Sequence record: OK148440
Length of the DNA: 64,000 bases
From: Escherichia phage MLP3
Direction: 5' to 3' (one strand)
A program made the translations under genes and the position numbers. Position 1 is the stretch's first letter, and each line of letters opens with the position of its first letter. This document shows, piece after piece, positions 15,785 to 42,863 of the stretch. The notes under the pieces were generated by a model. The model was given only the letters and a program-made list of their open reading frames with translations. It had not been told where the DNA came from and did not search any database.

Positions 15785-16096
15785 CTACTTCTCCACCACA
15801 AAGAGGTTAACTTCAATGAAAGTTTCGTATTGTGTTGACTCCTGCTTACGGGTGTAGTAGAAATGACGACCTTCTAATGCACCTCCGTACTGAGTGGCAC
15901 ATCTTTTAACCATCTCTTTTATCACATCTACAACTGATTCGCCTTTCCACGGACGTAACCCCTGAGTTGGGACTTTTGCTGTACAGGTTACTTGTGTGTA
16001 ACCTACATCTTGTAGAGATATCTCAAGAATCAGCTTTGCCCAAGCATCAAAATTAAGCTTGGGGTTATATTTAACTTCAGTTTTGATATCAATCAT
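15785..16096 (-). CDS. hypothetical protein
   Basis: ATG overlapping polymerase stop (TAATG). Confidence 0.45.
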   Translation of the reverse strand: MIDIKTEVKYNPKLNFDAWAKLILEISLQDVGYTQVTCTAKVPTQGLRPWKGESVVDVIKEMVKRCATQYGGALEGRHFYYTRKQESTQYETFIEVNLFVVEK

Positions 16097-17940
16097 TAGT
16101 GAGTATGATTCCAGTTTAATCCAATCTTACAATCTGATGCAAGAGGACATTCCATCTTGAGGTATTCCCCTGCTTTACGAACACATTCTTCAGTGAGGAT
16201 ACGAAGTTTGTTAACATCATCACGATGTACAGTGAACTGTCCTTCATCATGCATGTCAATAACCTTCGCACAACGAACACCATCCCGCTCAATCCATTTA
16301 TTGAGGAATAGCATTGCATACTTCATAACAATCGCCCCAGCGCTCTGTAAGAGTGTATTTAAGGCTTTATGGACCATAACCTTTCCAGTTGCATCTCTTC
16401 TCATTGTAATACGACGTCCATCCACACCGTAGATGTATCCACTTTGCGCTTTCTCTGTCATACGTTCAATAAGGATTGCAATACAAGGGTTCTCTGCTAA
16501 GAATCTTGCTCTCATGATAGCCCCTTCGTCAGAGCCACCACCTACAATACTTCCTAATTTAGCGTCACCTGCCCCATAGTTAAAGGCATATATAAACGTC
16601 TTAGCGTTATCACGAGTAGGAAGACCAGCAAGTTTTTGGTTATGTGAGTGAATGTCTCCTTCTAAAAGAATATCTCTGTACATAACAGCAGAAGCTAGAC
16701 CACGTTCAGCTTCTCGTTTCTTAGCCGGGTTGTTTTCTCGCTCTGCTTCAGCGAGCATCTCACGACATTCTTTAATAAGGTAGTGAGCTAGCATCCTCAG
16801 CTCAAGACCAGAGCCATCGTAACCTAAGAAGATTTCACGACCAGCAGGAACATAGAACTTATAGGCACCTACAGGTTTGTCTTTCTTGCCCGGTTTTCCC
16901 ACTTCGTAGATAATGTTAGTACCCTTTCGTACGTAACACCCATCAGGGATATGGTTGGTAATGATGAAAGGATGGTTATGACTATCGTCTGAGGAATAGT
17001 CAGATTGAAAAAGACTGCGGCACTCGTGACCAAACAAACCGCGAGAAGGAATATTAACAACAATGCGATGTTTAAAACGAAATGTCGGAGTAGCGCAGCT
17101 ATTAGCTTCGGCGGACAACTTACCATCTTTACGTTCCTTGTCGATAAGCCCGCTAATCAAACCTAGCCTGTGAGCCGCTACAACGCGTCTCTTAAGCAAA
17201 CTTCCTACACCCCCTAGCTCACCCCCAAGCCCCTCTTCAAGAGTCTCCTCAAGGTTTGTAGGGGCTGTGGGCCACTTGTTTGATGTAGCCAAAGCTTTTT
17301 TGATTTCATCAAAGGTTACAGGTTTCTTCCTATTCGGATTAAGACCTAAACCACTGACGTAGGCTTTCATGTAGTTGACAGTGTGATAACGGAAATGTTT
17401 ATCCAAAAATCTTCGGATATCAGCATCTATCATCTCCGCTGTCTGTTTCTCTTTAGCATTACCTCGAATCCAAGCAGAATACCATGCAGAGTATGTACCA
17501 TACTTCTTCATAGCTCTACGGATTTCAAATGTATTCCAAGGTTTCTTAGAATAATTCCACTCTGGAGGTATGAAGCCCTCATCCATCAAGGCTTCTTTAA
17601 TACGTGCATCTTTCGATGGGTCGAAGTCTACATACTCAACGCAAGTAAACGCCCCACCGATATCTTCTCTTTTAAGACCAACCCTATCGCAATAGAGCTG
17701 AGGCCACTTCTGTAAAGCACCTGATTTCTTAAAAGGCTTAGCATAAGTTGAACCATCCACCCGCATTTTAGGGAGGAGAGGAATCAGTTCTTTATCAATA
17801 TTGACAATAATCTCTTTGAGAAGGTGAACAAACCACCGAGCGTTTCTTCTGTTGAAGTTGACTCCATGCTTCGCTTGTTTTGAGATTATATCAGCGACTG
17901 TCATCTCCGTTATGAAAGGTAACTTATCAGGGTTATCCAT
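16096..17940 (-). CDS. DNA polymerase, family A, polymerase domain only
   Basis: motif A DGSGLELRMLAHY, motif B RDNAKTFIYAFNYGAG, motif C VIDMHDEG; ATG at 17940 with AAGGAG RBS (table start is GTG at 17943); no exonuclease motifs. Confidence 0.85.
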   Translation of the reverse strand: MDNPDKLPFITEMTVADIISKQAKHGVNFNRRNARWFVHLLKEIIVNIDKELIPLLPKMRVDGSTYAKPFKKSGALQKWPQLYCDRVGLKREDIGGAFTCVEYVDFDPSKDARIKEALMDEGFIPPEWNYSKKPWNTFEIRRAMKKYGTYSAWYSAWIRGNAKEKQTAEMIDADIRRFLDKHFRYHTVNYMKAYVSGLGLNPNRKKPVTFDEIKKALATSNKWPTAPTNLEETLEEGLGGELGGVGSLLKRRVVAAHRLGLISGLIDKERKDGKLSAEANSCATPTFRFKHRIVVNIPSRGLFGHECRSLFQSDYSSDDSHNHPFIITNHIPDGCYVRKGTNIIYEVGKPGKKDKPVGAYKFYVPAGREIFLGYDGSGLELRMLAHYLIKECREMLAEAERENNPAKKREAERGLASAVMYRDILLEGDIHSHNQKLAGLPTRDNAKTFIYAFNYGAGDAKLGSIVGGGSDEGAIMRARFLAENPCIAILIERMTEKAQSGYIYGVDGRRITMRRDATGKVMVHKALNTLLQSAGAIVMKYAMLFLNKWIERDGVRCAKVIDMHDEGQFTVHRDDVNKLRILTEECVRKAGEYLKMECPLASDCKIGLNWNHTH

Positions 17941-17956
17941 CACCCACTCCTTATAG

Positions 17957-22705: not shown

Positions 22706-23281
22706 TTAGTAAGACACGTCACCACTGGAGTGGGACATGTTGCTCTTGACGAAGTAACAGAACTTGCCAAGACCTTCATTAATTTCTTGAAGCATACTCT
22801 GATCAACTGGATAGGTGCACAAGTCTGAATCAAACTCGTCCATCTTCTCAATGATACACATAAGAGTCATGCACATGTCGGAAAGCATACCGTCCATGTC
22901 GAGATCAGCGTTACCTTCTCGGAACCAAGCGTGACCTAAATAGTTACTAGCAGTGGCATCCACCTTAACACAATGGAAGCGCATACGCTCTGCTATTCGG
23001 TCGCCTGCCTCACGGGCATAATCTTCTAGTTCATCGAACATACCATGAACACCTTGGAAACCAGCTCCAGAGACGTTCCAGTGGTAGTTCTTTGCTTTGA
23101 TGTGTAGAAGTTCAAGGTTAGCCTGCACACCACAAAGAATGTGCTCTAGGCTGTTACTGCTAATCAGTTTATTCATTCCCTCAAGACGAGAGATAGAAGA
23201 ATCAGTAGTAGAGAATGGATTACTAGAACCCACTCTTGTTAGTTCTGGTAAGTCGAAGACATTATTATGCATTAGGTGCAT
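22706..23281 (-). CDS. Dps-like ferritin-fold protein
   Basis: YHWNVSGAGFQGVHGMFDELEDYAREAGDRIAER resembles the Dps signature. Confidence 0.65.
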   Translation of the reverse strand: MHLMHNNVFDLPELTRVGSSNPFSTTDSSISRLEGMNKLISSNSLEHILCGVQANLELLHIKAKNYHWNVSGAGFQGVHGMFDELEDYAREAGDRIAERMRFHCVKVDATASNYLGHAWFREGNADLDMDGMLSDMCMTLMCIIEKMDEFDSDLCTYPVDQSMLQEINEGLGKFCYFVKSNMSHSSGDVSY

Positions 23282-24288: not shown

Positions 24289-24822
24289 TTATACACCCTT
24301 AGATGCAACTACACCATTACTGCCGTTGTATCGACCCTTCACTGCATAAGAGTCATCACCAGCGTGAGAGTGTTCGAACATAACCATTTGACCAACACGC
24401 ATCCCAGCACGAACTCGTAAGCTATGATTATGGGTAACGTTATGAAATTCAAAGGTTAGTTTACTGCTGTTAAACCCTGCATCAGCCCAACCAGCATGGA
24501 GGTGGTTTAAACCACAACGAGCCATTGAGGAGCGAAGTACAAACAGGCTTGAGATGTTATCTGGAAGGTTAAACTCTTCCATTGAGTGCGCTAAGAAGAA
24601 TTGCCCCGGAGTGATAACAATACCATCTTCAGGGATTTTTACTTCTTTCCACTTGAGGTTTTCTTTAGCATCAATGTCAACAATTCCGTCAGCCTGTTCT
24701 TCAACAAGGATAGTATCACCAATACGGATATCCACGCTAGCAGCGTTAACATATTTATGCTCCGCATCTAAAAAGCCATTATCAATAACGCTGTGTAATT
24801 CTTGAGAACCTAAAAGACTCAT
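24289..24822 (-). CDS. dCTP deaminase / dUTPase superfamily protein
   Basis: N-terminal NAASVDIRIGD as in dCTP deaminases; about 177 aa. Confidence 0.6.
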   Translation of the reverse strand: MSLLGSQELHSVIDNGFLDAEHKYVNAASVDIRIGDTILVEEQADGIVDIDAKENLKWKEVKIPEDGIVITPGQFFLAHSMEEFNLPDNISSLFVLRSSMARCGLNHLHAGWADAGFNSSKLTFEFHNVTHNHSLRVRAGMRVGQMVMFEHSHAGDDSYAVKGRYNGSNGVVASKGV

Positions 24823-26255
24823 GAGTTTCTGTTTCCTTGTACAGATGATGCCAAATTATTAATCATGTTACGAGCTGTTTCACGAGATAGTGTAACACCT
24901 GCTAAGTTGTTATGAAGCTCACCAGATAGCTCACGAGCAGCAGCTCGAAGTTCTGTACCAAGTGTAGTATCGGAGTGAGCCAAACCATTACGACGACTAT
25001 AAGGTCGAGGAGCTTCGTTAGCGTCATTAGCCAATGATGCAAAACCAATACGAGCAGCTTCACGAGCCGCTATAGTTGACACTCGATCTTCCGTAGGGGT
25101 TGGCAAATCACCAACTTCTACACGTTCTATATCACCAGCACGTAGACCCTGAGCGACTGAGCTTACTGTTTCCCATGAACGACGAGAACGCTGTAAATCA
25201 CCCATTGACGGAGAAGGAATAGGACGAGCAGTTCCTCCTTGGACATGCCATGTACGAGTATCCATTCCAGAAGAGCGTGCACTACCAAAACTGCCAGTGA
25301 AAGTGTCACGAGGTGCCATTGTAGGAGGAACTGCGAATCTTTCCTGTTGCCAAGAATCGCGTCTGTTAGTTCCCGGAGTCCAAGGTTGTTCAATTGCTTC
25401 AGCACCGATAGTAACTAATCCACTAGACCATTCTGTCTGTAGGTTAACTTCTTCATCAAGATAAATACGACCCCTTTCCTGAGGAATATTTAATGCAACC
25501 TCCATCATCTTCAGGGTATAATGACGACGTTGATTCTGGTATAAGTTTACACCAGCCATAGGTCCAACTAACTCACTGATTGGATAAACTTCTGGCTCAC
25601 CAAAAGCACCCATCGCAAGGTGCATGTATTCGGTAGAACTGCTATAAACTGCAACAGTTGCTTCAGGCCACTTTTTGTAGACATACTTCATTTCACGGCC
25701 TGTCACCACAGGGATAGAATCAGTATATGCCATTGCAAACAAACCTTCGTTTGACACATACATATCATTAAGAGTCATAAATCCTTGACAGATCATAGGG
25801 AAACGACGACTCAAAGTATCCATATCCAAAGGTAGATTAATCATCATCTGGATTTTAACTTGATCAATCTCAATTTCCAGAATCTCTTGGAAAGTGAAAA
25901 GTGATTCAGTATAGGTTGTTCCACTGATAGGCTGAACTAAGCGAGATGTGGTTTGAAGTCCTTTACTTTCTGTCCAAGATAAGAAGTTGTCAAGGAAAAG
26001 TGCAGCATTACCTGCGTTAGCAGGGCTGTTTTCCTGACGAGTGTTCCAACGAAACCCTCCTTGAACTAGGAAGATATCAACATCATTCGGAGTTCGATTT
26101 TGGAAGAACGTATCACGGATAGCACCACCTGCAATAACAGGATAGATGCCATCAGGAACTACGTTGTCTCTGATCAGATTGCGAATCAGATCAAGCCCTA
26201 CGCTGAGGGCTTCTCCTTCTTGAAGGTTTAATTCAGACAATGGAATCTTAATCAT
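24819..26255 (-). CDS. nucleotidyltransferase (pol-beta superfamily, CCA-adding / poly(A) polymerase-like head)
   Basis: IAGGAIRD...DVDIFL matches the GGxVRD...DxD head motif; C-terminal Arg/Ser-rich region; table start TTG at 26270, ATG at 26255. Confidence 0.5.
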   Translation of the reverse strand: MIKIPLSELNLQEGEALSVGLDLIRNLIRDNVVPDGIYPVIAGGAIRDTFFQNRTPNDVDIFLVQGGFRWNTRQENSPANAGNAALFLDNFLSWTESKGLQTTSRLVQPISGTTYTESLFTFQEILEIEIDQVKIQMMINLPLDMDTLSRRFPMICQGFMTLNDMYVSNEGLFAMAYTDSIPVVTGREMKYVYKKWPEATVAVYSSSTEYMHLAMGAFGEPEVYPISELVGPMAGVNLYQNQRRHYTLKMMEVALNIPQERGRIYLDEEVNLQTEWSSGLVTIGAEAIEQPWTPGTNRRDSWQQERFAVPPTMAPRDTFTGSFGSARSSGMDTRTWHVQGGTARPIPSPSMGDLQRSRRSWETVSSVAQGLRAGDIERVEVGDLPTPTEDRVSTIAAREAARIGFASLANDANEAPRPYSRRNGLAHSDTTLGTELRAAARELSGELHNNLAGVTLSRETARNMINNLASSVQGNRNS

Positions 26256-26257
26256 TT

Positions 26258-26806
26258 CTACATTTTCCAATTTAGAGATGGGGGATTCTTATAATCAAAT
26301 CCAGCCATTTGACAAAGACACATGTAAACTTTAACTGTCAAGTTAACGTCTTGCTCACAATAGGCGAACATGTCTTCAGTGAATGCGTCCCATGCCTCCT
26401 CCTGTTCTCCATAATCTCCTTTCAGCTCCCCAAGAAACTCGCCCCATTGTTTGAGGCCGTGACCACGAGGGCCATGTCTAGGGTCGCCTTTGGGGTATTC
26501 TGGACTATCACCAATACGGTCAGGCTTGAGATATCTACTCAGGCACAAAGTATCGAAGACGTTAAAGCGAAAAGGTATCACATGAGAATAAAACTTAAAC
26601 AAAGCAGGAAGGTCAAAATCAATAATATTGTGACCTATTACTACATCAGCTTCTTTCAGTTTGTGTAGTGCTTCTTCAATTTGGTGAGGGCGATACCCCC
26701 ACCGCTCTCCAGATAATACATCAAATATCCAGATACACCAGACATTCTGAATACCATCATAGAGATTATCCCCCTCAATATCAAACGCATACAGTTTCTT
26801 TACCAC
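26258..26806 (-). CDS. DnaQ-like 3'-5' exonuclease (stand-alone proofreading domain)
   Basis: Exo I FDIEGDN, Exo [13 protein letters not shown], Exo III YCEQDV; GTG start with GGGAGG RBS overlapping primase-helicase 3' end. Confidence 0.7.
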
Positions 26807-28590
26807 GGACGTGCCTCCCCTTCTTGTGCAAGTAAGGAAGCTGCATCCTCTCCATTGGTAACGGTAAAAGGATGCTCTTCATCAACTTCATGATCTTCTC
26901 GTTCTACAAGACGACCTGTTTCATTGATGTATTTGGTATAGCAAACCCCTGTCTGTCCATAGTTACGCTCTTTGAGCAGTCGTATGATTGACAAGTTTTT
27001 ACCTAACCCATCCGCTTGTTTGTTACGTTCAAAACCAATAATACACTGACACCAGCGCATCAATGAACGTGAACCAGTAAACTGTACTTCTTTAACCTGA
27101 CCACCTTCTTCGTGGGGTGCACCACCTGCCGGAGCGTTCAAGTGAGATAATACAAAAGCAGTGAAGTCTAATTCCTTACACATACCAGCAAGCTCTGAAG
27201 CAATCTTGCTGATTTCTGTGTTTACCTCAGATGGGGTTAAGTGAGATACCAATGCAGTGATGTTATCAAGAATGATAAATTTACACTGATTCTCAACTAC
27301 CCAAAAGCGAATACACTGCTTAATGTCTTCCCACTCGTTCTGCCCAAAGTTGTCATACAAGAAAAACTTATCAGCGTATCGAAGTGCTTCATCTCGTAGC
27401 TGGCTTTCTTCGTACTCAACATCCGGTCGGTGGAATGGAATAGATGCAGATTTACCTGCAATGTTCTTAACAGACATGCCTACCTTCTCTTCCAAGAAGA
27501 AGCCACCACCATTAAAACCATGCTCAAGGCAAAGCCATGCTACTAGTTCGTGTGCGATTAAGGTTTTACCTGAACCAACACCACCGCCGATTGCAACCAT
27601 CTCTCCCCAACGAATACCAAAGGTCATGTCGTTAAGAGTTTTCCACGGATAAGGAATACCCCATTCCGCTTTCTTCAGAGCATCTTCGAGGCAATCAAAA
27701 ACTGTAACAGCGCCGGCAGGAGATTCCCGCTTAGCTGAATACTTCAGATTGTTGAAAAGCTCTTGACCTCTCCCTGCAAGTAACATGTCGTTTGCATCTT
27801 TGATTTCCTTTTCTTGTCCGTTATAAGTGAACGTACCTTTTGGAATCCTTGCAAACTTAACATGCGGGTACAGAGAACGACCCTTAGTTAAAGCAATCTC
27901 ACCTGCATCATCATTGTCCATGCAGAGTACAATCTCCTCGAAACCATTAATAAAATCACGGTTTCTTGATAATACAGAAGAGATTGAACCTGCACCGAAC
28001 GGAAGAGAGACGCAAGCAGGTTTGATGTTAGTTGCGTTTGTAAACGCGGTAAGTACGTGGAACCCAGACATACAAGAGAGAGGATCTTCAAAGATGAAGA
28101 GTTTCTTGTTGTATACGTCACCACGTTGTGCTTGAGCCATACCAAACAAGTCGGCTTCTTTCACATTACCTACATAATAGAACTTCTTGCTGTCTAGAAG
28201 TTTTACTTCATATCCAACAATGTTCCCATCACGTTCACGAGGGAAGAAGTAGCTGTCAGGAGTTTGACCATCTGTTTGGCTTAAACCGATACGGCATCCA
28301 TAACGTTCAGATACAGCTTTAGGAATTAAGCGACGAGTCAACTCTCCCTGAGGAAGCTCTAAGCAATCGTCTAAGACTTCTCGGAGTTCTTCAGGGGACA
28401 GCTCTTTCTTTTCATTAGGAGTGGGCGTCGTTCCTTTCTCGAAGATTTCATACGCACCACATCTGTTACATGAACCCCACTCCTCACCGGACTCTTCATT
28501 TCGGAAGAGAATCATGTGATTGCGGGTCTTATCACGACCATGAGAGATACACTCTTTACAGCCTGTGTCTCCCAAAATGATCTTTGACAT
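26800..28590 (-). CDS. primase-helicase (T7 gp4-like)
   Basis: N-terminal Cys4 zinc motif, TOPRIM-like [10 protein letters not shown], Walker [10 protein letters not shown], Walker B FIILDNI. Confidence 0.85.
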
Positions 28591-28625: not shown

Positions 28626-28832
28626 TTAGTAAAACGATCGTATTTCTTCCCACACATCATCTTGCAAGTTTCTAAAACCCTGCAAGGTTTGCTTTGTTCT
28701 GTGAATAAATTCTTCAGAGTGCTTATCAGGTGTGAGCATACTGACAAACTTTTCATAGCGATTAATCTTCCACCGCATCTTCAAGTAGTCAGATTCCAGC
28801 TTTCTTAACTTCTGCCTGTCAGTTACTGTCAT
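28626..28832 (-). CDS. hypothetical small protein (start uncertain)
   Basis: table ORF overlaps neighbour; internal ATG chosen. Confidence 0.3.
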   Translation of the reverse strand: MTVTDRQKLRKLESDYLKMRWKINRYEKFVSMLTPDKHSEEFIHRTKQTLQGFRNLQDDVWEEIRSFY

Positions 28833-29250
28833 CCTTCTCACCTGCCAGATATGCTGTCCAGTCACCAGATTCAACCAGAACATCTTGTTCTTCGTCGATG
28901 TGATAAATCCATGCTTCCACAGTTTCACCGCTATCCAATAATACTGGAATCAGCGTACGCTTGTAAAAGGTGTATGGGTTATCATTACCACGATGACCTT
29001 CTAGACCGTCATACGGACCTTCCAGACCAGCTTGGGTTGTTTCAAAGACTTCTACACGAACAGGCTTACCATTGCTATCATGCTCCAAAGATACACTTGG
29101 GAAGTATGCTGTGCAATACTGATACAGGTTACAGTTGTTGACTGTCCACCCTTCACCAATAGACACACCACCTGCACGAGCGTTGATAGCGTGGTTGTGT
29201 TGACCTTTACGAAGAGAACCATACGTTGCAACTAATACTTTATCAGACAT
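28819..29250 (-). CDS. gamma-glutamyl cyclotransferase-like (GGCT/AIG2 fold)
   Basis: N-terminal VATYGSLRKG; about 140 aa. Confidence 0.6.
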   Translation of the reverse strand: MSDKVLVATYGSLRKGQHNHAINARAGGVSIGEGWTVNNCNLYQYCTAYFPSVSLEHDSNGKPVRVEVFETTQAGLEGPYDGLEGHRGNDNPYTFYKRTLIPVLLDSGETVEAWIYHIDEEQDVLVESGDWTAYLAGEKDDSN

Positions 29251-29254
29251 TACA

Positions 29255-29452
29255 TTACCTTTTGTTTAAGATTTCTTTTGTACAAGAAGTCCCGTTACAC
29301 ACGAGAATTGTTTGAGTTACAGAATCGACAACCGTTACATGACTGCCACATTGAGTTATGATTTGACCTCTCCCTGAATCTTTAGAGATACACTCATCAG
29401 CGGCAATTGCTGATACGCTGAACAAGGAGAGTAGGAGTAGAATCTTTTTCAT
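29255..29452 (-). CDS. small secreted Cys-rich protein
   Basis: signal peptide MKKILLLLSLFSVSAIAA; 4 Cys in mature part. Confidence 0.4.
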   Translation of the reverse strand: MKKILLLLSLFSVSAIAADECISKDSGRGQIITQCGSHVTVVDSVTQTILVCNGTSCTKEILNKR

Positions 29453-29458
29453 GGCAGC

Positions 29459-29875
29459 TTACCAATCATATTCGAAACCAGAATAGCCGGAGAAGAGGAT
29501 TGATCGGATTGTCTTTTCAGGAAATTCTTCAAAACTTTCCTTAATAGCCCCCTTGGTTTCATCAGACACTGATCCTTTTTCACCAAACCAATATTCTCCA
29601 AAAATGTCAGAGAAGGTATAGGTTCGATATTTTTCCAAGTAGTAACAACCTTCCACCGCATCGGTAACCTCCTCACTGATGACACAAGAAGCTACAGGGA
29701 AAAGTGAGCTGTGCTCCATAAACAAACACCAACGATTAAAGAGAGGAATCTCTTCATCTTTCAGAAGACTTTCTAATTCTTCCTTTGCCTCTTTCTTGTG
29801 CTTCTCAAAGAGGTTTTTGGAATACTCTACATCTAAGATATGGCTTTTAAACATATCCAGTTTATTGTCAACCAT
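29459..29875 (-). CDS. hypothetical protein
   Basis: ATG; 138 aa. Confidence 0.45.
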   Translation of the reverse strand: MVDNKLDMFKSHILDVEYSKNLFEKHKKEAKEELESLLKDEEIPLFNRWCLFMEHSSLFPVASCVISEEVTDAVEGCYYLEKYRTYTFSDIFGEYWFGEKGSVSDETKGAIKESFEEFPEKTIRSILFSGYSGFEYDW

Positions 29876-29932
29876 TTTACAACCTCCAGTTAAATTCGAA
29901 CTAGCCCCCTCTTTCGAAGAGGCTAAAGCAAA

Positions 29933-30118
29933 TTATTCTACTTCGAAGTGTTTGATCACACCAGTCAGTACATCAGATTGGAACGTACCTACTAGCTCTG
30001 TACCTCGGAAAAAGTTAACACTTGTTCCAAGTGATTCAAAGCGATCTGCTTGAATGTCCAGAGATTGAATATTTCCTTCTGCTGACATTGTACGAAACAT
30101 GATTGTGTATTTATTCAC
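29933..30118 (-). CDS. hypothetical small protein
   Basis: ORF only. Confidence 0.35.
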   Translation of the reverse strand: MNKYTIMFRTMSAEGNIQSLDIQADRFESLGTSVNFFRGTELVGTFQSDVLTGVIKHFEVE

Positions 30119-30357
30119 AGACTTGTTACTCCCTTATCTGCTTGTGCAATTGCGATGATACGCTCAGCACATTCCATTGAATATTTATCACCTCGTTTGA
30201 GGAAGGTGATGATTGCAGAGAACTGATTACCAATCATTCTCTTATTTGTGATACCGAACTCTTCACAGAGTTGGTTGATAGCTTTACGAGAGCCTACAAT
30301 CAGAGGCTCTTTTTCTTCGGTCATTCCACGGCTGATCAAATCTTCGATAGACAACAT
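30115..30357 (-). CDS. hypothetical small protein
   Basis: ATG. Confidence 0.4.
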   Translation of the reverse strand: MLSIEDLISRGMTEEKEPLIVGSRKAINQLCEEFGITNKRMIGNQFSAIITFLKRGDKYSMECAERIIAIAQADKGVTSL

Positions 30358-30383
30358 TACAAATTCCTTTTTGTTTAATTTAA

Positions 30384-31619
30384 TTACAGAGTTACTGCTA
30401 CTTCGCTACCCTCAACATTGACAGACTCTAACTTGCGAGGGTTATGAATCTGGACTGGATTGACCGGAACGTTCCAACCACTGCGGTAGAAGTTACGACC
30501 ATCACAGAACAGGATGACATTGGCAGACATTGCATTCGGTTGCAGGTTGTTGTGGACATGACGGATATTTGCAATCCAGTAGCCACGAGACAAAGTGTAG
30601 CCAGTAGGTGCATTACGAATAGTTTGAGTATTCATCTGACCTTCCAGTTGCATTTCTTCAGGAACCACATCAACTGAATCAATCGGCTGTGCTACTTGTC
30701 CTTCCAGTGCAAAGTTTTCATCATCAGCACTTTCAATATCATCCACCAACTCACCGTCTCCATCTTCAATCGGAGTCTGGTAAACCACTTTATACTGAGG
30801 AGTATAGAGAGGGTTTTGAGCTTTAACAAACTCAAGAATGTTATGACGGTAGGTATCCAGAGTTGTACCAGTCAGGCCCGGTGCTGTATTAACTTCCAGT
30901 ACCCACGCTTCTTGACCTTTGGTGATAATATCAACTGCACCGAAATCCAGACCCATTGATTCAACAGCTTTCACTGCATTGATCAGAGAGGCGTCATTCG
31001 GAGCATCTGTGAAGGAGCTTGAGTAAACCCAGCCAGTGTGGTGATTACGAATATCTTCACGATAGTTAGGGTCTTCGCGATAACCATTGCGACGAATCTT
31101 CTTCTGAACATAGGTGATTACACCTTTGAACACATGGACACGCCACTCACGACGTGGGCCTTGAATGCCTTTAGTGTACAGTTCAGCTCGACCAAGACCA
31201 TCACCCGGTTCTACAACAACAATGCCCGAACCAGAGTGACCAGTCAGCTCATGGCGCTCATACACAATATTACCAGTGTTTGACCACTCTTGAGCAGTCT
31301 CTTGAGCATCTGTGTATTCCACAGTTTTAACACCTGCTTGGTCCATCACGCTGAAAGCACGACGTTTGTTCGCTGCCATATGTAAGGCTGCGGTACGGTT
31401 AAGGACGGTTGCAGAACCAAAGAATGATTCAGGATAGCGACGGTTCCCGTAGTTAACAACCACATCACCTTCACGAGAACGCCAGCGGCTATTCTCTGAA
31501 AGAAGACCCATCACGTTAGCATTGATGCGTTCATCACGGATAGTATCACTGATAGCAGATACTAGAGCGTTAACAGAATCAGACGGGCCATACGGAAGAA
31601 CACGGATACGAGTAGTCAT
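30384..31619 (-). CDS. ATP-grasp family ligase with C-terminal extension
   Basis: GAVDIITKGQEAWVLEVNTAPGL matches ATP-grasp C-terminal catalytic motif (RimK-like). Confidence 0.7.
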   Translation of the reverse strand: MTTRIRVLPYGPSDSVNALVSAISDTIRDERINANVMGLLSENSRWRSREGDVVVNYGNRRYPESFFGSATVLNRTAALHMAANKRRAFSVMDQAGVKTVEYTDAQETAQEWSNTGNIVYERHELTGHSGSGIVVVEPGDGLGRAELYTKGIQGPRREWRVHVFKGVITYVQKKIRRNGYREDPNYREDIRNHHTGWVYSSSFTDAPNDASLINAVKAVESMGLDFGAVDIITKGQEAWVLEVNTAPGLTGTTLDTYRHNILEFVKAQNPLYTPQYKVVYQTPIEDGDGELVDDIESADDENFALEGQVAQPIDSVDVVPEEMQLEGQMNTQTIRNAPTGYTLSRGYWIANIRHVHNNLQPNAMSANVILFCDGRNFYRSGWNVPVNPVQIHNPRKLESVNVEGSEVAVTL

Positions 31620-31621
31620 TT

Positions 31622-31852
31622 TTAGATACCTTTTAGTTTAAGAATTTCGTTACGACAGGATTGAATTTTAGCTTCGATTGCCCAATACTCAGCGAACATT
31701 TCGTCTTCTTGGTCATCGCTTGGAGAGTCGATTAAGTTAAAAGCAAACGGATACAGCTTTCGCTGCTCCGTTACCAGTTGTTGAAGTCGGAGTTGTTGAT
31801 ACTCCAGCATTGTCAGGTGAGGCTTAGCTCCCTTGCTTGACATGAGGCTCAA
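31622..31852 (-). CDS. hypothetical small protein (TTG or internal ATG start)
   Basis: ORF only. Confidence 0.35.
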   Translation of the reverse strand: MSLMSSKGAKPHLTMLEYQQLRLQQLVTEQRKLYPFAFNLIDSPSDDQEDEMFAEYWAIEAKIQSCRNEILKLKGI

Positions 31853-32057
31853 CTTTAATCCCCTTCATTTTAACATAGTCAGCCAACACGTTATTGATAA
31901 CGGTTGGAAAAGGGATTTCTACTGGAGAGTCAACCAGCTTCCCAATACCTTCTTGCATCCACTTCTGGATTGCTCGGAGGTTATCACATCCTGTGCTTGT
32001 CATCGGAATACGGCGGGTAGTTACCACGTTATCCAACATCAGTTTACGAACTTCCAT
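31824..32057 (-). CDS. hypothetical small protein
   Basis: ATG. Confidence 0.4.
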   Translation of the reverse strand: MEVRKLMLDNVVTTRRIPMTSTGCDNLRAIQKWMQEGIGKLVDSPVEIPFPTVINNVLADYVKMKGIKVEPHVKQGS

Positions 32058-32068
32058 AACTATACCTC

Positions 32069-34102
32069 TTAGTGTTTACCTTTACAGTAATCTGAATTAC
32101 AGATCACCCTGTTTTCTTTGTTCAGTGAGCAAGTTTCTGCATCACGCCACGGAATTTGTTTATAACAAACTGCACAAAACCCAATTGAAGTCCAGAGGGC
32201 TTTTGTAAACTCAGCTGTTCGTTGTCCATCGTAACTGACAACTGTTTTTCGGAGAGAGGTTGACTTTTCTGGAAATGTCTCCGCTTTCTCAGCGGGTACC
32301 TCCTTTGGGGCATTCTTTGGACCATAAACAGAGATGGCATAAGTATCACCACCACGTTTTTCCAAATACGAATTAGGAACATCTGCAAGTGTGATGTCCC
32401 CTGAACGTTTTGCTGAGCTGACCATTACAATCATACGGCTAAGCATACGTTCATCAACACGAACAGCTACTTCAGGACGACGTGGGTTGGTTGTGTCCAC
32501 TGCTTTAGTCCAAATATAACCCTCAGACAGCGTAACATTCTTTACTTTGTCTTTGATTTCTTTGGAGCAGATATAACAAACATCTTCACCACGAAGTTTA
32601 CTCATTTCGTTGTCAAACTCGAAATCAGTCTTGACTTCACCACAGATAGCACATACACCCAAAGGCACATCTTCTTCCTCTTCAGAGGTTTTAGATAACG
32701 CTTCGAAGCATTCTGGATGCCAGTATGCCTGATAAGCAAACACAGCCTTACGAGCATCTTTCCAGTCAATGTGCTTATCACAACCACCACAGTCACCATG
32801 AGAGTGAGATTCCCAGAACTTACGAGTGACTTCTACACCATTCTTAGTGATGAAGGAGTCCTCTGCATCAAAAGGGATATCATCATCAAAATCAGCAGTA
32901 GTGCTTTGAGGCTCCTTATCTGTAGCATCAACAAACAGCCCTGAAGTTAGTACGAGGCGAATCATACTGTCCACTTCGGAGATACAAGCAATCGTCCCGC
33001 GATATACTACCTTTGGGTTTTCAAGAGCCTTAAGATATTCATCTTTGGCTACGTTGTGAACATCCCCTTCGACATACTCTTGAGCTTTATCATCGTAGAT
33101 GTAACCAACCATCTTACCACGATCTGTGTTGTTATAAGCATGGAACTCGTGAGGAATAATATCCACACGACCATCACGACGATAAGGAAGACCACGATCG
33201 GCAGCCAGTTTGTTCTGGTCTTCAATCGCTTTACGACGACGAATGTCTCCGCTTGTCACGCCGGGCTTGTCGTCTTTGTTTCCGTAAATGTCGCTTGTGC
33301 TGCTGCTTGATTTGTTTGTCTGTTGGTTCTGATAAAGAGAGGAGTTCGAGTAATAGCCGCCCCAGCGACTCGTTACCGTAAAAACCGGAAGCGTGTGCTC
33401 CACCTCTTGAACCAGAGTCATACGACTGTTAGACACATCAAAGATATACTCAGTTCCCACTTTACATTCGAAGTGGTCATTGATACGGTTCTTATGGGAC
33501 TTAGAACGCTCTAAAATCCACATAAGCATAGCTTCTTCAGAAGCTCCAAACCAATCCAAACCACAGCGGGCTAGGTGGAAAGGACGCTCATCATTACGGA
33601 TAATGTGAAGTGTGTTGTCTTTAGCATCATGCCAAATCAAAGTGAATGCACCATCCAGTTTTTGGATAGTCTCTGCTGCTCCAATGGTGTTAATTGAGTG
33701 GCAGATGTTTTCACTATCAACTTCGAAACGCTTACTGTCAGGAAGGAGATCTTGATCTAACAGGGTTCCATTATGAACCAGAGTAATATCCCCGTGAGTA
33801 AATGGGTGAGCATTTCGAGCATTGACAGCCCCACGAGTGGCATGTCGGCTGTGACCAACAATCCACGAAGGAGGAACTACGTAGTTCGTAAGCCCTTTGG
33901 TAATATTTGTATATTCTGTCTGGAGCATAAAAGCATAAGAAGGAAGAGCTTCTTTATAAGAGAAGACTTGCTTTTCACCTTTACGCTGACCAAACACACC
34001 AGTTGAGTGCTGTCCACGGAAAACACCAGCATACAGAAGTTGGTTGAAAATGTCCAAATCTGCTGAGGTCATGTTGCCGCCAGCTAATACGATACCACAA
34101 AT
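32069..34102 (-). CDS. class-II (Ntn) glutamine amidotransferase-like protein with C-terminal Cys-rich zinc-ribbon region; probable non-ATG (AUU) start
   Basis: CGIVLAGG...VFRGQHSTGVFG matches GlmS/PurF N-terminus; the Cys codon lies 9 codons upstream of the first ATG, after an in-frame TAG, with AGGTGG 8 nt before ATT. Confidence 0.6.
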   Translation of the reverse strand: MCGIVLAGGNMTSADLDIFNQLLYAGVFRGQHSTGVFGQRKGEKQVFSYKEALPSYAFMLQTEYTNITKGLTNYVVPPSWIVGHSRHATRGAVNARNAHPFTHGDITLVHNGTLLDQDLLPDSKRFEVDSENICHSINTIGAAETIQKLDGAFTLIWHDAKDNTLHIIRNDERPFHLARCGLDWFGASEEAMLMWILERSKSHKNRINDHFECKVGTEYIFDVSNSRMTLVQEVEHTLPVFTVTSRWGGYYSNSSLYQNQQTNKSSSSTSDIYGNKDDKPGVTSGDIRRRKAIEDQNKLAADRGLPYRRDGRVDIIPHEFHAYNNTDRGKMVGYIYDDKAQEYVEGDVHNVAKDEYLKALENPKVVYRGTIACISEVDSMIRLVLTSGLFVDATDKEPQSTTADFDDDIPFDAEDSFITKNGVEVTRKFWESHSHGDCGGCDKHIDWKDARKAVFAYQAYWHPECFEALSKTSEEEEDVPLGVCAICGEVKTDFEFDNEMSKLRGEDVCYICSKEIKDKVKNVTLSEGYIWTKAVDTTNPRRPEVAVRVDERMLSRMIVMVSSAKRSGDITLADVPNSYLEKRGGDTYAISVYGPKNAPKEVPAEKAETFPEKSTSLRKTVVSYDGQRTAEFTKALWTSIGFCAVCYKQIPWRDAETCSLNKENRVICNSDYCKGKH

Positions 34103-34179
34103 TTTCTAATCCACCTGAAGGGTAAACCCTTTCATCTAATTAACCTTTAAATGCGCCCTGTATAAGAGCGCCCGTTGTG

Positions 34180-35280
34180 TTACAGCAGTCGTTCTAATTG
34201 CATTTCCAGATGGTCTGGAATATAACCAGTGACGTTATCATCACTGCTACCTGATTCACGCATCAATGCAAACATGTGACGAATTTCACGAACCGTTGCG
34301 ATTCGAGTGCTTTCAATCTGAGGGGTGTAGTAGGTCATGATCTCTTCGTAGACACTGTTGGCATTACCGCGCACATATCCCAAGAAACCATAGAAGTCAT
34401 TCATATCACGTAAGTTGATAAGGACTTCACCATCAGGGCCAGTCTGTTGCACACGAACACGACCAACCAAAGTTACAGATTGCTCACGACAGAAGAGAAT
34501 ATCACGAGCAAGACGATACCCTTCAGTGAGATCACTGTCTCTTGGAGTATAGTCTAGGGGTAGATGTTGAATCATAGGAGCGAAGCGCAGCTCATTCAAC
34601 TTCTCAACATAAGCTTCATTGTCTAAATCTGCATATTCAACAGCAAGTTTCTTGAGAACCAAGAAGCGGTTGACCAGATTCAGAAGTTGGCTCTTTTTCC
34701 ACTTCGGCTCTGAGATACGGAACTCAACAGAACCAAATTGAGATAGAGGCAAAAGATTAAGGGAGGTATATTTATCCCAGCTATTAACAAGAGAGTGGAA
34801 GAAAGCTTCCCCGTCTCGGTTGAACGCTGACGAAGCATTCATAACTTGTGCTTGAACGACAGCAAAAGCTGGACAGAAGTTGCTACGATAGCGATGGTAT
34901 CCAGAACATTTGAACATCATCTTTTCATAGAACGTCCATCCAAGAATAACTTTCTTAAGGATATTACTATCAGCGTCACGCATATCCATATGAACGTGAG
35001 TGGAGCAGCGCCAAGTTCCCTCGGCTCCAGAATCCTGTACTGCTTCACTCAGATTGTTAATAGCACGAAGTAATTCTTCACCGTTGTAAGGTCGTGCACA
35101 TACTAATTCACAACCATCACGAAGAGAGCCATCTTCAGTACAAACCCACATATCAGCGTCAATGTCAGTTGTACCTTCGACTTCTAACTCAATACCAACA
35201 CCACACTGAAAAGCAATACTTGGATGCGGTTCAGATAAGCGAGGGTTACGGTATCCAAAAACTTGTGCTACGGTTGTCAT
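34180..35280 (-). CDS. amidoligase (glutamine-synthetase-like COOH-NH2 ligase family)
   Basis: VGIELEVEG and STHVHMD motifs. Confidence 0.55.
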   Translation of the reverse strand: MTTVAQVFGYRNPRLSEPHPSIAFQCGVGIELEVEGTTDIDADMWVCTEDGSLRDGCELVCARPYNGEELLRAINNLSEAVQDSGAEGTWRCSTHVHMDMRDADSNILKKVILGWTFYEKMMFKCSGYHRYRSNFCPAFAVVQAQVMNASSAFNRDGEAFFHSLVNSWDKYTSLNLLPLSQFGSVEFRISEPKWKKSQLLNLVNRFLVLKKLAVEYADLDNEAYVEKLNELRFAPMIQHLPLDYTPRDSDLTEGYRLARDILFCREQSVTLVGRVRVQQTGPDGEVLINLRDMNDFYGFLGYVRGNANSVYEEIMTYYTPQIESTRIATVREIRHMFALMRESGSSDDNVTGYIPDHLEMQLERLL

Positions 35281-35903
35281 AATGATTCCACCAACTCTAC
35301 ATTATATGATGACAGGTCTGAAGAAATATGCTTGAACTTCTCCAGAAGGTTTAAAGATTGACGACCATTGTCGCCATAACCAGCTTCAAGAAGCACGTTT
35401 CCAACGTAAGCCCCTTTGTAATAAACTTTTCCATCGACAGGATTGATATAGATGAAACGAGTAACCAACCCTTCAAACTCTGGATTAAACAGGTTATACA
35501 CCAAATCACCCGGAATCGAACGTCCGAGAGAAGGTGGAGTACCACGAAGTTTATTCCCCATCAAGCCTTTAGCTCGCTGACGAACAGGGTTGATATGGGT
35601 CCAGCTCACCATGTTATTACCATGCTGAAGGTATCCTACATCTGGAGACTCCAGAATGAGGCTGTGATCAAACACTGGGATATTACTAACAATCTGACGT
35701 TCAAACTGACCTTCAGAGTTTTTAGTCCAGCGTTCCGCCTCAAACACTAAAGACATTTCAGCGTCGTGTGAGTAGTCGTCAATATCAAAGTTACCTTGCT
35801 GACGAACATCAAGCACATATAGAGGGAGGTTTTTACCATCAGGTGATCGCTGAGCAATCCATGTTCCACAATAATAGTGTTGAAAATCTCTTAACAAGCT
35901 CAC
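35277..35903 (-). CDS. hypothetical protein in ligase cluster
   Basis: GTG start with AAGGTGA RBS; 208 aa. Confidence 0.45.
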   Translation of the reverse strand: MSLLRDFQHYYCGTWIAQRSPDGKNLPLYVLDVRQQGNFDIDDYSHDAEMSLVFEAERWTKNSEGQFERQIVSNIPVFDHSLILESPDVGYLQHGNNMVSWTHINPVRQRAKGLMGNKLRGTPPSLGRSIPGDLVYNLFNPEFEGLVTRFIYINPVDGKVYYKGAYVGNVLLEAGYGDNGRQSLNLLEKFKHISSDLSSYNVELVESL

Positions 35904-35912
35904 AATATCACC

Positions 35913-36719
35913 TTATACAATCTGGAGTTTAGAGGAGAATTTATCCGCTTCTTTAACATCGTTACTGTTGATGATGTTGTGAAGCTTTTCAATTGGAAGG
36001 CGAGAGTGAAGTGACATCAATACTTCCATATCACAGCCTTGAACAACCTTATCAACTTGCTCATAAACAAACTTGCGGGTTGACTTCTCGCCAATCCAGA
36101 AGTTAGAAAGAGAACGATATTCAATACCGTAATCTTTGTAGCGAATGGCAGAAGCCTTTCCGTATAACTCTTTACGACGAGTATCTTTATCCATGATCAC
36201 AGCTGGCAAGGACAGGAAGTAATCACACAACACACCCAACATCATTTGAGTCTGACGACTAATTTCCAGCGTACCAGTGACGCCAAGGTGAACATGACCG
36301 CCAGCAGTACGCAGACCTTTGTCTGTCGCTACTGGAGATGGGTTTTTCTGACCAGTGAAGGCGTTGAAATCAGGAGTACAACCAAATACAAAGGCTGACG
36401 GATGGAAAGATTCCAGCTCTTCTGAAGTGAACACATGAGAGCTAATCCCAAGTGCTGCCTCCATGCCACGTTCATTGAGAACTTTGTTAGTCAGATCAAT
36501 ACCACGCTGAATGTTATCATTAAACGCTTCAAACCCTTTCTGTGGGTTAATATCGAACTCGGCCAGAACGTTGTCTTCTTGAAGACGAACATCAGGGGCC
36601 AGATCAATTTTGTTGTCTTTAGAGCAGCCCAGCTTACCAGCCACAGAGGTGATAATACCAGAAGCAGTACGAACAAACATTTCAGGGTCAGAACCAATAA
36701 GGAAAGCACGCTTAGTCAT
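35913..36719 (-). CDS. amidoligase-like protein (second copy, divergent)
   Basis: FLIGSDPEMF and AGGHVHLGV motifs; ATG at 36719 with GGAG RBS (table start GTG at 36764). Confidence 0.45.
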   Translation of the reverse strand: MTKRAFLIGSDPEMFVRTASGIITSVAGKLGCSKDNKIDLAPDVRLQEDNVLAEFDINPQKGFEAFNDNIQRGIDLTNKVLNERGMEAALGISSHVFTSEELESFHPSAFVFGCTPDFNAFTGQKNPSPVATDKGLRTAGGHVHLGVTGTLEISRQTQMMLGVLCDYFLSLPAVIMDKDTRRKELYGKASAIRYKDYGIEYRSLSNFWIGEKSTRKFVYEQVDKVVQGCDMEVLMSLHSRLPIEKLHNIINSNDVKEADKFSSKLQIV

Positions 36720-37662
36720 TGTAATACTCCACGAGTTCATCAAAAAGGGAAACAACACGAGCACCAGCTTCTTCTGGTGTCATTGAGGAAGGTACTGCTT
36801 GCATCAGTCGTTCGATAAAACTGCGAACAGTAATTCTGTCCATACGCTGATCTAATACTTCTCTCTTGTGACCTGCACAAGTTGACCAGAGACGCAACCA
36901 CTCACTCATACTCTCGTAATGGTCAGGGTCTTGGTCACGACGACGTGCCATACGACGGAGAACTCCATCATTGTGGTTTCGTACATAACCATCTCGGTTA
37001 TCATCAACACCGAACACATTCTGAACCCATACGTTTTCAGAAAATTCATCAGTGGTGCAAATTAGTGGCAGAAATGCAATTGCACTCATGTCACCATCAA
37101 AATAAGTCGCTGCTGACTCGTCAGTTGAGTCTACGTCATTACTATAACACCAGCGACCAAAGAAGTTACGACTTAAACCAGCTAAGCGTAGAGCTAAACC
37201 GATTCGTTGTCGCTTAAGCAACTCTTCCTTGTCTTGTACGCCTTCCTGAAGGAACTCCATTCCATTAAAATCACCATCCAAATAGCTACGGATGGTCATT
37301 AGTCCAGTAAACACCTTGTCTGCTGGATGGTTTCGAAGGTTCACGGCAATGGAGTTCACCGAAGTGACAGAGAACATATCTTTATAGCAAGACATTGAGT
37401 TAAAAATATCTGTTGCTTCAACTAAAGCTCTTTCGATATCTTTAGCTGGCACGCCATAAAAATTGTGAGGCCAGAAGTTAATAACTTCAATTTCTGAAGT
37501 TCTATCACGAAGGCTTGTTCGGTTACGACTTTCACCGTTAATGTCTGTAACAGAATACATGTGCATACAGTTAAAAGTACCAAAGCAAGCTCTTCCTTTG
37601 AACACTGACTCACCGAAATCCTCTGCCGGTGTTACCGGAGCAATCGATGCGGAGATTGACAT
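36712..37662 (-). CDS. hypothetical protein in ligase cluster
   Basis: ATG; 316 aa. Confidence 0.45.
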   Translation of the reverse strand: MSISASIAPVTPAEDFGESVFKGRACFGTFNCMHMYSVTDINGESRNRTSLRDRTSEIEVINFWPHNFYGVPAKDIERALVEATDIFNSMSCYKDMFSVTSVNSIAVNLRNHPADKVFTGLMTIRSYLDGDFNGMEFLQEGVQDKEELLKRQRIGLALRLAGLSRNFFGRWCYSNDVDSTDESAATYFDGDMSAIAFLPLICTTDEFSENVWVQNVFGVDDNRDGYVRNHNDGVLRRMARRRDQDPDHYESMSEWLRLWSTCAGHKREVLDQRMDRITVRSFIERLMQAVPSSMTPEEAGARVVSLFDELVEYYND

Positions 37663-37670
37663 ATTCGCCT

Positions 37671-38888
37671 CTATTTATTAAAGAATAATTTTTCCATAAT
37701 GGTTTCCCACTCTTCTGAGGGGAGGGTTGAGAACCCGTTTCCGTGAAGCCTGTTTGTCATGCAACTAATAATATTGTACATGTTGTAGCTTCGGGTGGAT
37801 TCTGTTCCATTGTTCCAGTTATAACCGAAAACAATTTTATCGAAGGAGGTTTTATCCGTAGTTACTTCTCGGATGAACTCAACCAAGAGCGATTTCTCTG
37901 TGATGACCGCACGTTCACCATCTGGCAGATTACAATACTGAGGAAGAAGGATTGGTAAGAACATCGAATTGTTCACTCGACAATCACGAACACCTTCACT
38001 GCGATAGATTAGGCTTGAGAAGTCTTCATCACGCAGGTGTCCTTCACCTTCAGTGTATTCACACTGTCGCCATTTGGTCTGGCGAGGTTCAATCATTGTA
38101 CTGCCAACGCCTACTGTATACAGAGACGCTTGGAAGATACACGAGTCGTAATCATTCCCTGTTAAAGCAACTTGCTCATTGCCGAACACATCCACTGAAG
38201 AGTTAATCAGTCGGCTGAATGCAAGAGAGGCTAGTGGAGACCAACCTTTCTTATACATCTTGTTCAGCATTTCATACACAGCAGATTTTTCATCATCTGT
38301 ATAGAATGTACGATTCAGCATCAGATAGAACAGAGCGCGATCAGCAGGACAACCATCAGTACAAACACCCATGAATCCTACTTCATGCCATACCAGACAT
38401 GAGTCAGAATCTTTATCCATGAATGCTTCAAAGGCTTCCATTACAGCCCTGTCAGTAACATCAGGACGGTTGTTTTCTTCTGCCCATGTTTCTACATGAG
38501 AAGGAGGACGAGGGTCTCCATTCTCCACCCCTTCGCGGAAATATTGAGTGGTAATAGGCTTTTTATCACCATAACGTTTTACACCATAAGCGGGAAGGTG
38601 TGTACCAGAGTTCCAGATGTACTTAATTTCGGACATAGGCATCATGTTTTCGAGAACGTTCTCTTCAGCAGTGCCTTGACGAACCATCATATTTTCACTC
38701 CACACCTTAATGCGGATATTCCAGCCGTAGTTGCTGTCATACGTGTTATAATAATCAGGATCACCATCTTCATCTTCATCATAATCACCACCCTGATAGT
38801 AACCTGCTTTCAGGAAACCATAACAAGGAGGCCAGACGGTTACAACATCATCTGATTCTTTCCAGCTTTGAAGTGTTACAGGGAACAT
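37671..38888 (-). CDS. hypothetical protein in ligase cluster, acidic N-terminal segment
   Basis: ATG; 405 aa. Confidence 0.45.
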   Translation of the reverse strand: MFPVTLQSWKESDDVVTVWPPCYGFLKAGYYQGGDYDEDEDGDPDYYNTYDSNYGWNIRIKVWSENMMVRQGTAEENVLENMMPMSEIKYIWNSGTHLPAYGVKRYGDKKPITTQYFREGVENGDPRPPSHVETWAEENNRPDVTDRAVMEAFEAFMDKDSDSCLVWHEVGFMGVCTDGCPADRALFYLMLNRTFYTDDEKSAVYEMLNKMYKKGWSPLASLAFSRLINSSVDVFGNEQVALTGNDYDSCIFQASLYTVGVGSTMIEPRQTKWRQCEYTEGEGHLRDEDFSSLIYRSEGVRDCRVNNSMFLPILLPQYCNLPDGERAVITEKSLLVEFIREVTTDKTSFDKIVFGYNWNNGTESTRSYNMYNIISCMTNRLHGNGFSTLPSEEWETIMEKLFFNK

Positions 38889-42787: not shown

Positions 42788-42863
42788 TGGTGCACCCTAC
42801 AGGACTCGAACCTGTAACCAACGACTTAGAAGGTCGCTGCTCTGTCCGTTGAGCTAAGGGTGC
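42788..42863 (-). tRNA. tRNA-Arg, anticodon UCU
   Basis: hand-folded cloverleaf: acceptor GCACCCU/AGGGUGC, D-stem GCUC/GAGC, anticodon loop CUUCUAA, T-arm ACAGG-UUCGAGU-CCUGU, encoded CCA. Confidence 0.85.

Follow-up and report, generated by a model that had tools for sequence, protein, structure and literature searches.

The subject of this analysis is a gene on the minus strand of a 64,000-nucleotide stretch of Escherichia phage MLP3 (sequence record OK148440; "the window" below), at positions 24819–26255. It encodes a protein of 478 residues, labeled hypothetical in the MLP3 entry, which profile comparisons and a structure model identify as a nucleotidyltransferase (NTase) of the pol-beta fold, with a head specifically of the class II type that is characteristic of CCA-adding enzymes and poly(A) polymerases. 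Our tentative reading, to which we give somewhat less than an even chance, is that the protein is a stand-alone, template-independent and catalytically competent NTase of the class II lineage that retained only the catalytic head, and that its acceptor is the 3'-OH of a nucleic acid.

The "nucleotidyltransferase" label is already present in RefSeq records and in PHROGs, and the gene was flagged by the authors of the BASEL collection as well. What the present analysis adds is that the NTase represents a small, lineage-restricted family, with head-only NTases from T7-like phages as its distant relatives. In addition, four of the five defining sequence features of the CCA-adding enzyme and poly(A) polymerase family, together with the RNA-binding domains, are missing, which by the measure of sequence places the protein outside that family functionally.

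The NTase gene and its family

The minus strand reading frame is open from a TTG codon at 26270 down to 24819. The close homologues all begin with MIKIP and the distant ones with MIxIP, and the start is therefore assigned to the ATG at 26255. The resulting coding sequence, including its stop codon, coincides exactly with the interval 24819–26255 proposed in the initial annotation. The surrounding locus is 97% identical to that of Escherichia phage IME267 and 90–96% identical to those of other phiEco32-like podophages, and the orthologous proteins include phi32_73 of phiEco32 and CDS74 of SU10. These identities assign the window to a coliphage of the Gordonclarkvirinae (Kuravirus group). The protein matches phrog_12715 ("nucleotidyltransferase") with an E value of 7.6e-159, residues 1–471 aligning with profile positions 1–456 of 457. 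Direct searches of Pfam, NCBIfam and the PDB sequences with the protein returned no useful match; hence, the class II relationship is seen only by means of profiles and structure.

When 1.84 billion cluster representatives (clusters at 50% identity) were scanned exhaustively with HMMER, only 29 relatives were obtained at E <= 1e-3; a match of 3044 residues found in the family search was a repetitive artefact and was discarded. The family is present in 97 of 50,697 phage records, all of them from Escherichia or Shigella phages, and the identical 97 records were recovered with three different family members as the query. Among isolated phages the family is limited to the Gordonclarkvirinae. The family alignment comprises 27 members that share 21–33% sequence identity with the query. 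Twelve residues are invariant in all 27 sequences (G43, G44, R47, D48, D58, D60, F62, I125, Q136, P153, Y191 and K195), and positions 124 and 188 are occupied by D or E throughout. Throughout this small family, which is specific to phages, the gene is under purifying selection. CDS74 of phage SU10, which its annotation and size mark as an orthologue, is represented by one peptide in mass spectrometry data (PMC4281155), and judged from that peptide the MLP3 protein is probably produced in infection too.

Structure of the catalytic domain

The AlphaFold model of residues 1–300, calculated with the diverse 27-sequence alignment, has a mean predicted local distance difference test (pLDDT) score of 83.7 and a predicted TM (pTM) score of 0.82. 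The N-terminal catalytic domain, residues 1–298 (25362–26255, minus strand, as are all the features of the gene), comprises an N-terminal helix, the class II-type head at about residues 35–145, and a family-specific alpha/beta extension at about residues 145–290. The model and the alignment together contain the elements by which the pol-beta fold is recognized: the alpha-beta-alpha-beta-alpha-beta minimal fold, the hG[GS] signature, the DxD pair and a third carboxylate on the neighbouring strand. The nucleotidyltransferase fold proposed in the initial annotation is thus borne out by the phrog_12715 assignment, by the model and by the class II profile match described below.

Motif A, G43-G44-A-I-R47-D48 followed by D58-V-D60 (26076–26129), provides the two predicted metal-binding aspartates and lies within residues 40–62, VIAGGAIRDTFFQNRTPNDVDIF. 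The pol-beta head motif (GGAIRD...DVD) that had been noticed originally is therefore present, and the two aspartates on whose conservation the original proposal depended do not vary in the alignment. E124 (25884–25886), on the predicted strand 122–130 beside the strand that carries the DxD, is the candidate third catalytic carboxylate, a role we infer from the general pol-beta fold. The extension carries a helix motif of its own, acid188-x-x-Y191-x-x-x-K195 (R-E-M-K-Y-V-Y-K-K; 25671–25694), which is family-specific and coincides with helix 186–195 of the model. No nucleic-acid-binding module was matched within the extension.

Comparison with class II enzymes

The solved folds nearest to the NTase are those of class II CCA-, CC- or A-adding enzymes. 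Profile–profile comparison using hhalign with an alignment of nine class II reference sequences (E. coli Cca, PcnB, an enterobacterial Cca and six homologues from the phage collection) resulted in a probability of 88.9% and an E value of 2.4e-6, with the significant alignment restricted to family positions 40–109, in the head. The comparisons with E. coli Cca and PcnB as single sequences covered 23 and 80 columns, respectively, at low probability. An hmmsearch of the family profile against the PDB sequences identified the CCA-adding enzymes 6ibp and 7otr with E 0.005, the match being confined to 27 residues of motif A. The PolyA_pol profile (PF01743), named in the initial annotation as a check, does not match the window protein at all but gives weak matches in 17 of the 27 relatives; the best scores 21.8 bits (E 2.5e-4), no relative reaches the gathering threshold of 23 bits, and the matches are mostly confined to profile positions 3–35.

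Beyond the head, the resemblance ends. Motif B (RRD) occurs in all nine class II reference sequences, as RRDxTIN, and is absent from the 27-sequence NTase alignment. A low-confidence extension of the hhalign alignment places the TINA strand on I-Q136-x-M138, which is preceded by x-G-[IV] rather than RRD. The pair R150-R151 was considered as a motif B look-alike and rejected, as it varies within the family. The references also all carry motif C, motif D (EDPLRxLRxxRF) and motif E, whereas comparison of the NTase family with the class II profile, with E. coli Cca and with PcnB aligned nothing to these motifs, and EDxxR, the amino-acid template of motif D, is absent from the family. The equation of the acid188-x-x-Y191-x-x-x-K195 helix with motif D was dropped, because the topological guess and the hhalign extension differ by two helical turns; the extension carries zero confidence over that region. 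Neither PF12627 nor a helical neck, nor the body and tail that bind tRNA, were found in the family, and members of 274–285 residues leave no room for tRNA-binding domains. Accordingly, the CCA-adding or poly(A) polymerase likeness first proposed stands for the motif A head and fails for motifs B–E and for the neck, body and tail.

Class II enzymes and poly(A) polymerase I (PDB accession numbers 1miv, 3h37, 1ou5 and 3aql) combine the PF01743 head with PF12627, whereas the likeness of the NTase to them stops at the head. In place of their neck, body and tail the NTase has an alpha/beta extension peculiar to its family and a variable tail without lysine and, unlike theirs, its gene sits in a DNA-replication block. 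Bona fide phage CCA-adding enzymes, found for example in Vequintavirinae, in Schizotequatrovirus (KVP40-like) phages and in jumbo phages, share motif A with the NTase. However, they are proteins of ~ 375–450 residues that contain motifs A–E and share 29–56% sequence identity with E. coli Cca over the head and neck. A search with the head and neck of E. coli Cca recovered 474 phage records at E <= 1e-5; the matches listed are records of 85–640 kb or larger contigs, none of them from Gordonclarkvirinae, and the window NTase is not detected. The stand-alone head domain of Streptococcus pneumoniae, NP_344798.1 (191 residues; PDB accession number 2la3), matches the NTase far less well than the full class II enzymes do; it is bacterial and lacks both the extension and the tail of the NTase family. 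PADLOC models of defence and toxin NTases (CD-NTase, MenT/AbiEii) did not match the protein. For annotation, the lesson is that the labels "CCA-adding enzyme" and "tRNA nucleotidyltransferase" are unfit for transfer to these proteins.

Head-only NTases of other phages

After an orthologue from the Kuravirus group, the highest-ranking matches in the BFVD structure library are phage proteins of ~ 170–220 residues that carry the annotation "poly A polymerase head domain" or "nucleotidyltransferase", with Foldseek E values of 1e-6 to 1e-4 and template modelling (TM) scores on the target of 0.5–0.63. They derive from Autographiviridae and other phages, including LKD16, LIMEzero, PP2, phiAS7, Cd1, Lullwater, RSB3 and Vibrio phage ICP1 (ORF223). 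One of them, the 199-residue gp16 of LKD16, was assigned to phrog_1614 with E 9.5e-40. The phrog_1614 profile matches the window NTase with E 5e-6 over residues 32–72 only, and matches the family members with E 3e-7 to 5e-6, in relatives over as much as residues 33–136. Direct hhalign comparison of the family with LKD16 gp16 aligned ~ 40 residues around motif A with a probability of 39%.

On these sequence comparisons, the NTase is a remote relative of phrog_1614 and not a member of it. The NTase family proteins are 80–280 residues longer than the phrog_1614 proteins and have conserved motifs of their own (Q136, P153 and the acid188-x-x-Y191-x-x-x-K195 helix). The NTase gene is also fixed between the polymerase exonuclease and dCTP deaminase genes. 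A setting among replication genes is nonetheless shared: phrog_1614 genes, in unrelated podophages, adjoin helicase, ligase or DNA polymerase genes. The gene order in the phiKMV-like Pseudomonas phage LKD16 is helicase, gp16 NTase (9703–10302 of the stretch examined), DNA ligase and DNA polymerase. Aeromonas phage Ahp1 has its NTase gene (ORF19) between those for ligase and DNA polymerase. LKD16 has no tRNA genes, and head-only NTases of class II type therefore recur in replication modules independently of tRNAs. Literature searches found no experimental work on, or function for, these head-only phage NTases. Since many T7-like phages encode such an NTase in their replication module, a substrate for one of them would inform the whole class.

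The lysine-free tail

Residues 299–478 (24822–25361) form the Arg/Ser-rich tail that the initial annotation described, here found to contain 22 arginines, 20 serines and no lysine, with an isoelectric point (pI) of 10.2. After residue 298 comes a variable, indel-rich linker, and the tail closes with a conserved end, the final 21 residues (RETARNMINNLASSVQGNRNS) being invariant in close relatives. Tails of other NTase subfamilies are unrelated in sequence, and the shortest members (274–285 residues) stop immediately after the extension. Nonetheless, every tailed member of the family has a tail devoid of lysine and rich in arginine; examples from other subfamilies are 200 residues with 23 arginines, 165 residues with 19 and 117 residues with 17. 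The lysine-free run of the window NTase spans 229 residues, the longest in the window proteome, where lysine makes up 6.2% of residues.

Lysine-free runs are also seen in other proteins of the window: 187 residues at 14–853 and 141 plus 126 residues at 863–1831 (both plus strand), 172 residues at 59571–60653 (plus strand), and 139 plus 108 residues at 34180–35280 (minus strand). The number of lysine-free runs of at least 140 residues expected by chance in the window proteome is ~ 0.15. Several short-tailed NTase homologues end with an aromatic residue that follows polar or acidic residues (EYDF, TWDW, GWTF, RWQW, RFNF and REVW), unlike the window NTase, which ends ...VQGNRNS. These aromatic ends are reminiscent of the C-terminal tails that serve in replisome docking, as in T7 gp2.5, T7 gp4 and SSB.

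Genomic context

In the window, the minus strand carries the early and middle genes and the plus strand the late ones. The NTase gene is the third of a block of four minus-strand genes. The block begins with a T7 gp4-like primase/helicase (26800–28590), in which DnaB_C was identified; two metagenomic orthologues have Toprim as well as DnaB_C. Next is a 182-residue 3'-5' exonuclease subunit of DNA polymerase (26258–26806; PF01612, phrog_403 and phrog_17), which matches residues 4–142 of T7 gp5, the T7 DNA polymerase, with E 5.6e-8. Its TAG stop codon (26258–26260) precedes the NTase ATG by 2 nucleotides. The NTase stop codon in turn overlaps the start codon of the dCTP deaminase gene (24289–24822; PF22769 DCD, E 1.6e-34; phrog_1663) in the sequence ATGA, which suggests that the two genes are translationally coupled. 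An RNase D-like identity for the exonuclease, which would have paired it with the NTase in tRNA 3'-end processing, was rejected because the protein is the exonuclease domain of a T7 DNA polymerase.

The block is retained in Bas87, phiEco32 and LAMP, and the order is identical in two uncultured viral contigs with NTases that are 32% and 26% identical to that of the window. The sole breaks of synteny at the NTase locus are insertions of homing endonucleases, according to the BASEL paper (PMC11990801). In phiEco32, replication and nucleotide-metabolism genes belong to the middle class (PMC8948821). The phage-sigma promoter motif has no exact copy in the vicinity of the block, and sigma-70-like sites show no enrichment. 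In one metagenomic relative an HNH endonuclease gene (contig positions 11343–11801) directly follows the dCTP deaminase gene, and HNH genes are dispersed in the middle region of Bas87.

Downstream of the dCTP deaminase gene are genes for a Dps/ferritin-like protein, ThyX, a PhoH-like protein and the polymerase domain. The last of these, the family A DNA polymerase catalytic subunit (16096–17943, minus strand; PF00476), is the other half of a split T7-like polymerase: the exonuclease subunit matches positions 670–826 of phrog_17 and the polymerase subunit the consecutive positions 837–1233. The two genes of this split polymerase are separated by 8.3 kb and about 20 genes. The Dps/ferritin-like protein is encoded by a gene annotated "DNA binding protein" (22706–23281, minus strand; PF00210, E 7e-8), which is unusual in a phage replication region.

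tRNA-Arg(UCU) and codon usage

The tRNA-Arg(UCU) gene to which the initial annotation drew attention exists at 42788–42863 on the minus strand, where it was identified by ARAGORN and by Rfam (70.3 bits). It lies in the early region, 16.5 kb upstream of the NTase gene, and no tRNA gene occurs within 10 kb of the NTase gene in any locus examined. The tRNA gene ends with ...AGGGTGC-A-CCA, that is, with discriminator A followed by an encoded CCA, so that the phage tRNA has no need of CCA addition. AGA accounts for 14.5% of the arginine codons in the window ORFs and for 18.2% in the plus-strand late genes; in a related phage it accounts for 20.2%, compared with 3.6% in E. coli K-12 (PMC9965538). 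Codon usage thus bears out the suggestion that the tRNA supplies a codon that is rare in the host, and this supply, the usual explanation, accounts for its presence. Both the NTase and tRNA-Arg genes were present in all the Gordonclarkvirinae genomes checked. A genome of this group with the NTase and without a tRNA was sought, but even LAMP, a phage of the small-genome clade, carries tRNA-Arg. The Gordonclarkvirinae genomes are syntenic throughout, which makes the co-occurrence uninformative about function and, as far as can be told, coincidental.

Proposed activity and alternatives

We propose that the NTase descends from the class II lineage of CCA-adding enzymes and poly(A) polymerases by reduction to the catalytic head. 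D58, D60 and E124 would support two-metal chemistry in which a nucleotide is moved from a nucleoside triphosphate, ribo- or deoxyribo- (NTP or dNTP), to the 3'-OH of a nucleic acid. The enzyme would act as a generic terminal transferase, in a manner nearer to that of poly(A) polymerase than to that of a CCA-adding enzyme, and in the subfamily represented in the window the Arg-rich, lysine-free tail could supply the binding of nucleic acid or of a partner. The most likely acceptor would be an RNA or DNA 3' end met in the middle or replication phase, and not specifically tRNA. If active, the protein would be a minimal class II NTase, composed of the catalytic head and an extension of its own, with a bearing on how specificity evolved in the CCA-adding and poly(A) polymerase lineage.

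Several observations weigh against this proposal. The literature yielded no report of activity for any member of the NTase family. Because motifs B and D are missing, the sugar and base specificities cannot be predicted, and the acceptor may be a protein or a small molecule. Binding to nucleic acid is not evident from the catalytic domain, which has a net charge of ~ -13, and a basic tail is missing from many members of the family; E. coli Cca is also acidic over its head and neck, however, so the acidity is not decisive in this respect. Finally, adjacency to replication genes is weak evidence of function, since it comes from one phage lineage in which nearly everything is syntenic, and the middle region of small podophages consists mostly of DNA-metabolism genes in any case.

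The initial annotation had favoured tRNA repair or maintenance: 3'-end (CCA) repair that serves tRNA-Arg(UCU) or counters host nucleases that attack CCA ends. The nearest solved folds, the class II type of motif A, the annotation based on CDD in PMC4281155 and the presence of both genes in each Gordonclarkvirinae genome examined are in its favour. Against these stand the confinement of the match to the head, members too short to hold the architecture that measures tRNA, the CCA encoded in the phage tRNA gene, and a host that already has Cca. Moreover, genuine phage Cca proteins are readily detectable, in the 474 records noted above, and among the matches listed none is from Gordonclarkvirinae. 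The tRNA itself is accounted for by AGA usage and lies far from the NTase gene, which has a replication context, and the related phrog_1614 NTase occurs in the tRNA-free LKD16. An annotated repair partner, RNA ligase or Pnkp, is missing from the 43-kb stretch of Bas87 examined. We therefore consider tRNA repair or maintenance unsupported and unlikely. Poly(A) polymerase-like tailing of host or phage transcripts, which would speed RNA decay and nucleotide recycling in infection, is likewise an unlikely role for the protein. A target other than nucleic acid, either a host or phage protein (by AMPylation or UMPylation) or a small molecule, would make the NTase an agent of host takeover or counter-defence and its position in the replication cluster incidental. 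The catalytic domain is acidic (pI ~ 4.6–5.3) in nearly all members, many of which lack a basic tail, residues 145–290 are family-specific with no nucleic-acid-binding module matched, and phage middle regions commonly hold anti-defence genes. This explanation is also on the unlikely side, if a shade less so.

The adjacent dCTP deaminase gene raises the prospect of DNA modification, with the NTase as a component of an anti-restriction system in which DNA is nucleotidylated or a non-canonical nucleotide is made or activated. Gordonclarkvirinae are strongly resistant to restriction–modification (RM) without known modification or anti-restriction genes, and the BASEL authors pointed to the dCTP deaminase and NTase locus as one that may underlie this resistance (PMC11990801). 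The overlap of the two genes and the retention of the pair at 26–32% NTase identity agree with their suggestion, and the window retains 9 EcoRI, 24 EcoRV and 7 EcoKI sites, such that site avoidance alone cannot explain resistance to those enzymes. In work attributed to Li et al. in 2002, motif B of class II enzymes is said to read the ribose 2'-OH, and its absence here leaves room for the use of dNTPs. On the other hand, we know of no pol-beta or class II NTase that modifies DNA bases, and no report of modified bases or of sequencing difficulties was found for these genomes; nothing usable was found on in vitro restriction digests of Kuravirus DNA. With ThyX and an annotated dNMP kinase (in Bas87), the dCTP deaminase fits an ordinary supply of dTTP in a genome of 42% G+C, and the phrog_1614 NTase of LKD16 occurs without a dCTP deaminase. 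Twelve 6-bp palindromes are absent from the window, including those of PstI (CTGCAG, 0 compared with 13.5 expected) and SacI (GAGCTC, 0 compared with 14), a single CCWGG is present and GATC reaches 0.45 of its expected frequency; such heavy avoidance suggests DNA that is exposed to restriction rather than chemically shielded. Participation in DNA modification or anti-restriction thus seems rather unlikely, and it is quite improbable that the NTase performs the catalytic step of an undescribed covalent modification of DNA or DNA ends behind the RM resistance. If it did, it would be the first NTase of the CCA-enzyme type recruited to DNA or dNTPs, and the gene is one of very few candidates for the unexplained RM resistance of the Kuravirus group, which is common and used therapeutically.

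Other features of the window

The minus-strand region 28819–38888 contains a conserved cluster of enzymes that form peptide or amide bonds. Its members are a GGACT/AIG2-like gamma-glutamyl cyclotransferase, a weakly matched RimK-like ATP-grasp protein, a class II glutamine amidotransferase, an Amidoligase_2 protein, a COOH-NH2 ligase of the phiEco32 type and three proteins without a Pfam match. We take this cluster to be the amidoligase system described for phiEco32.

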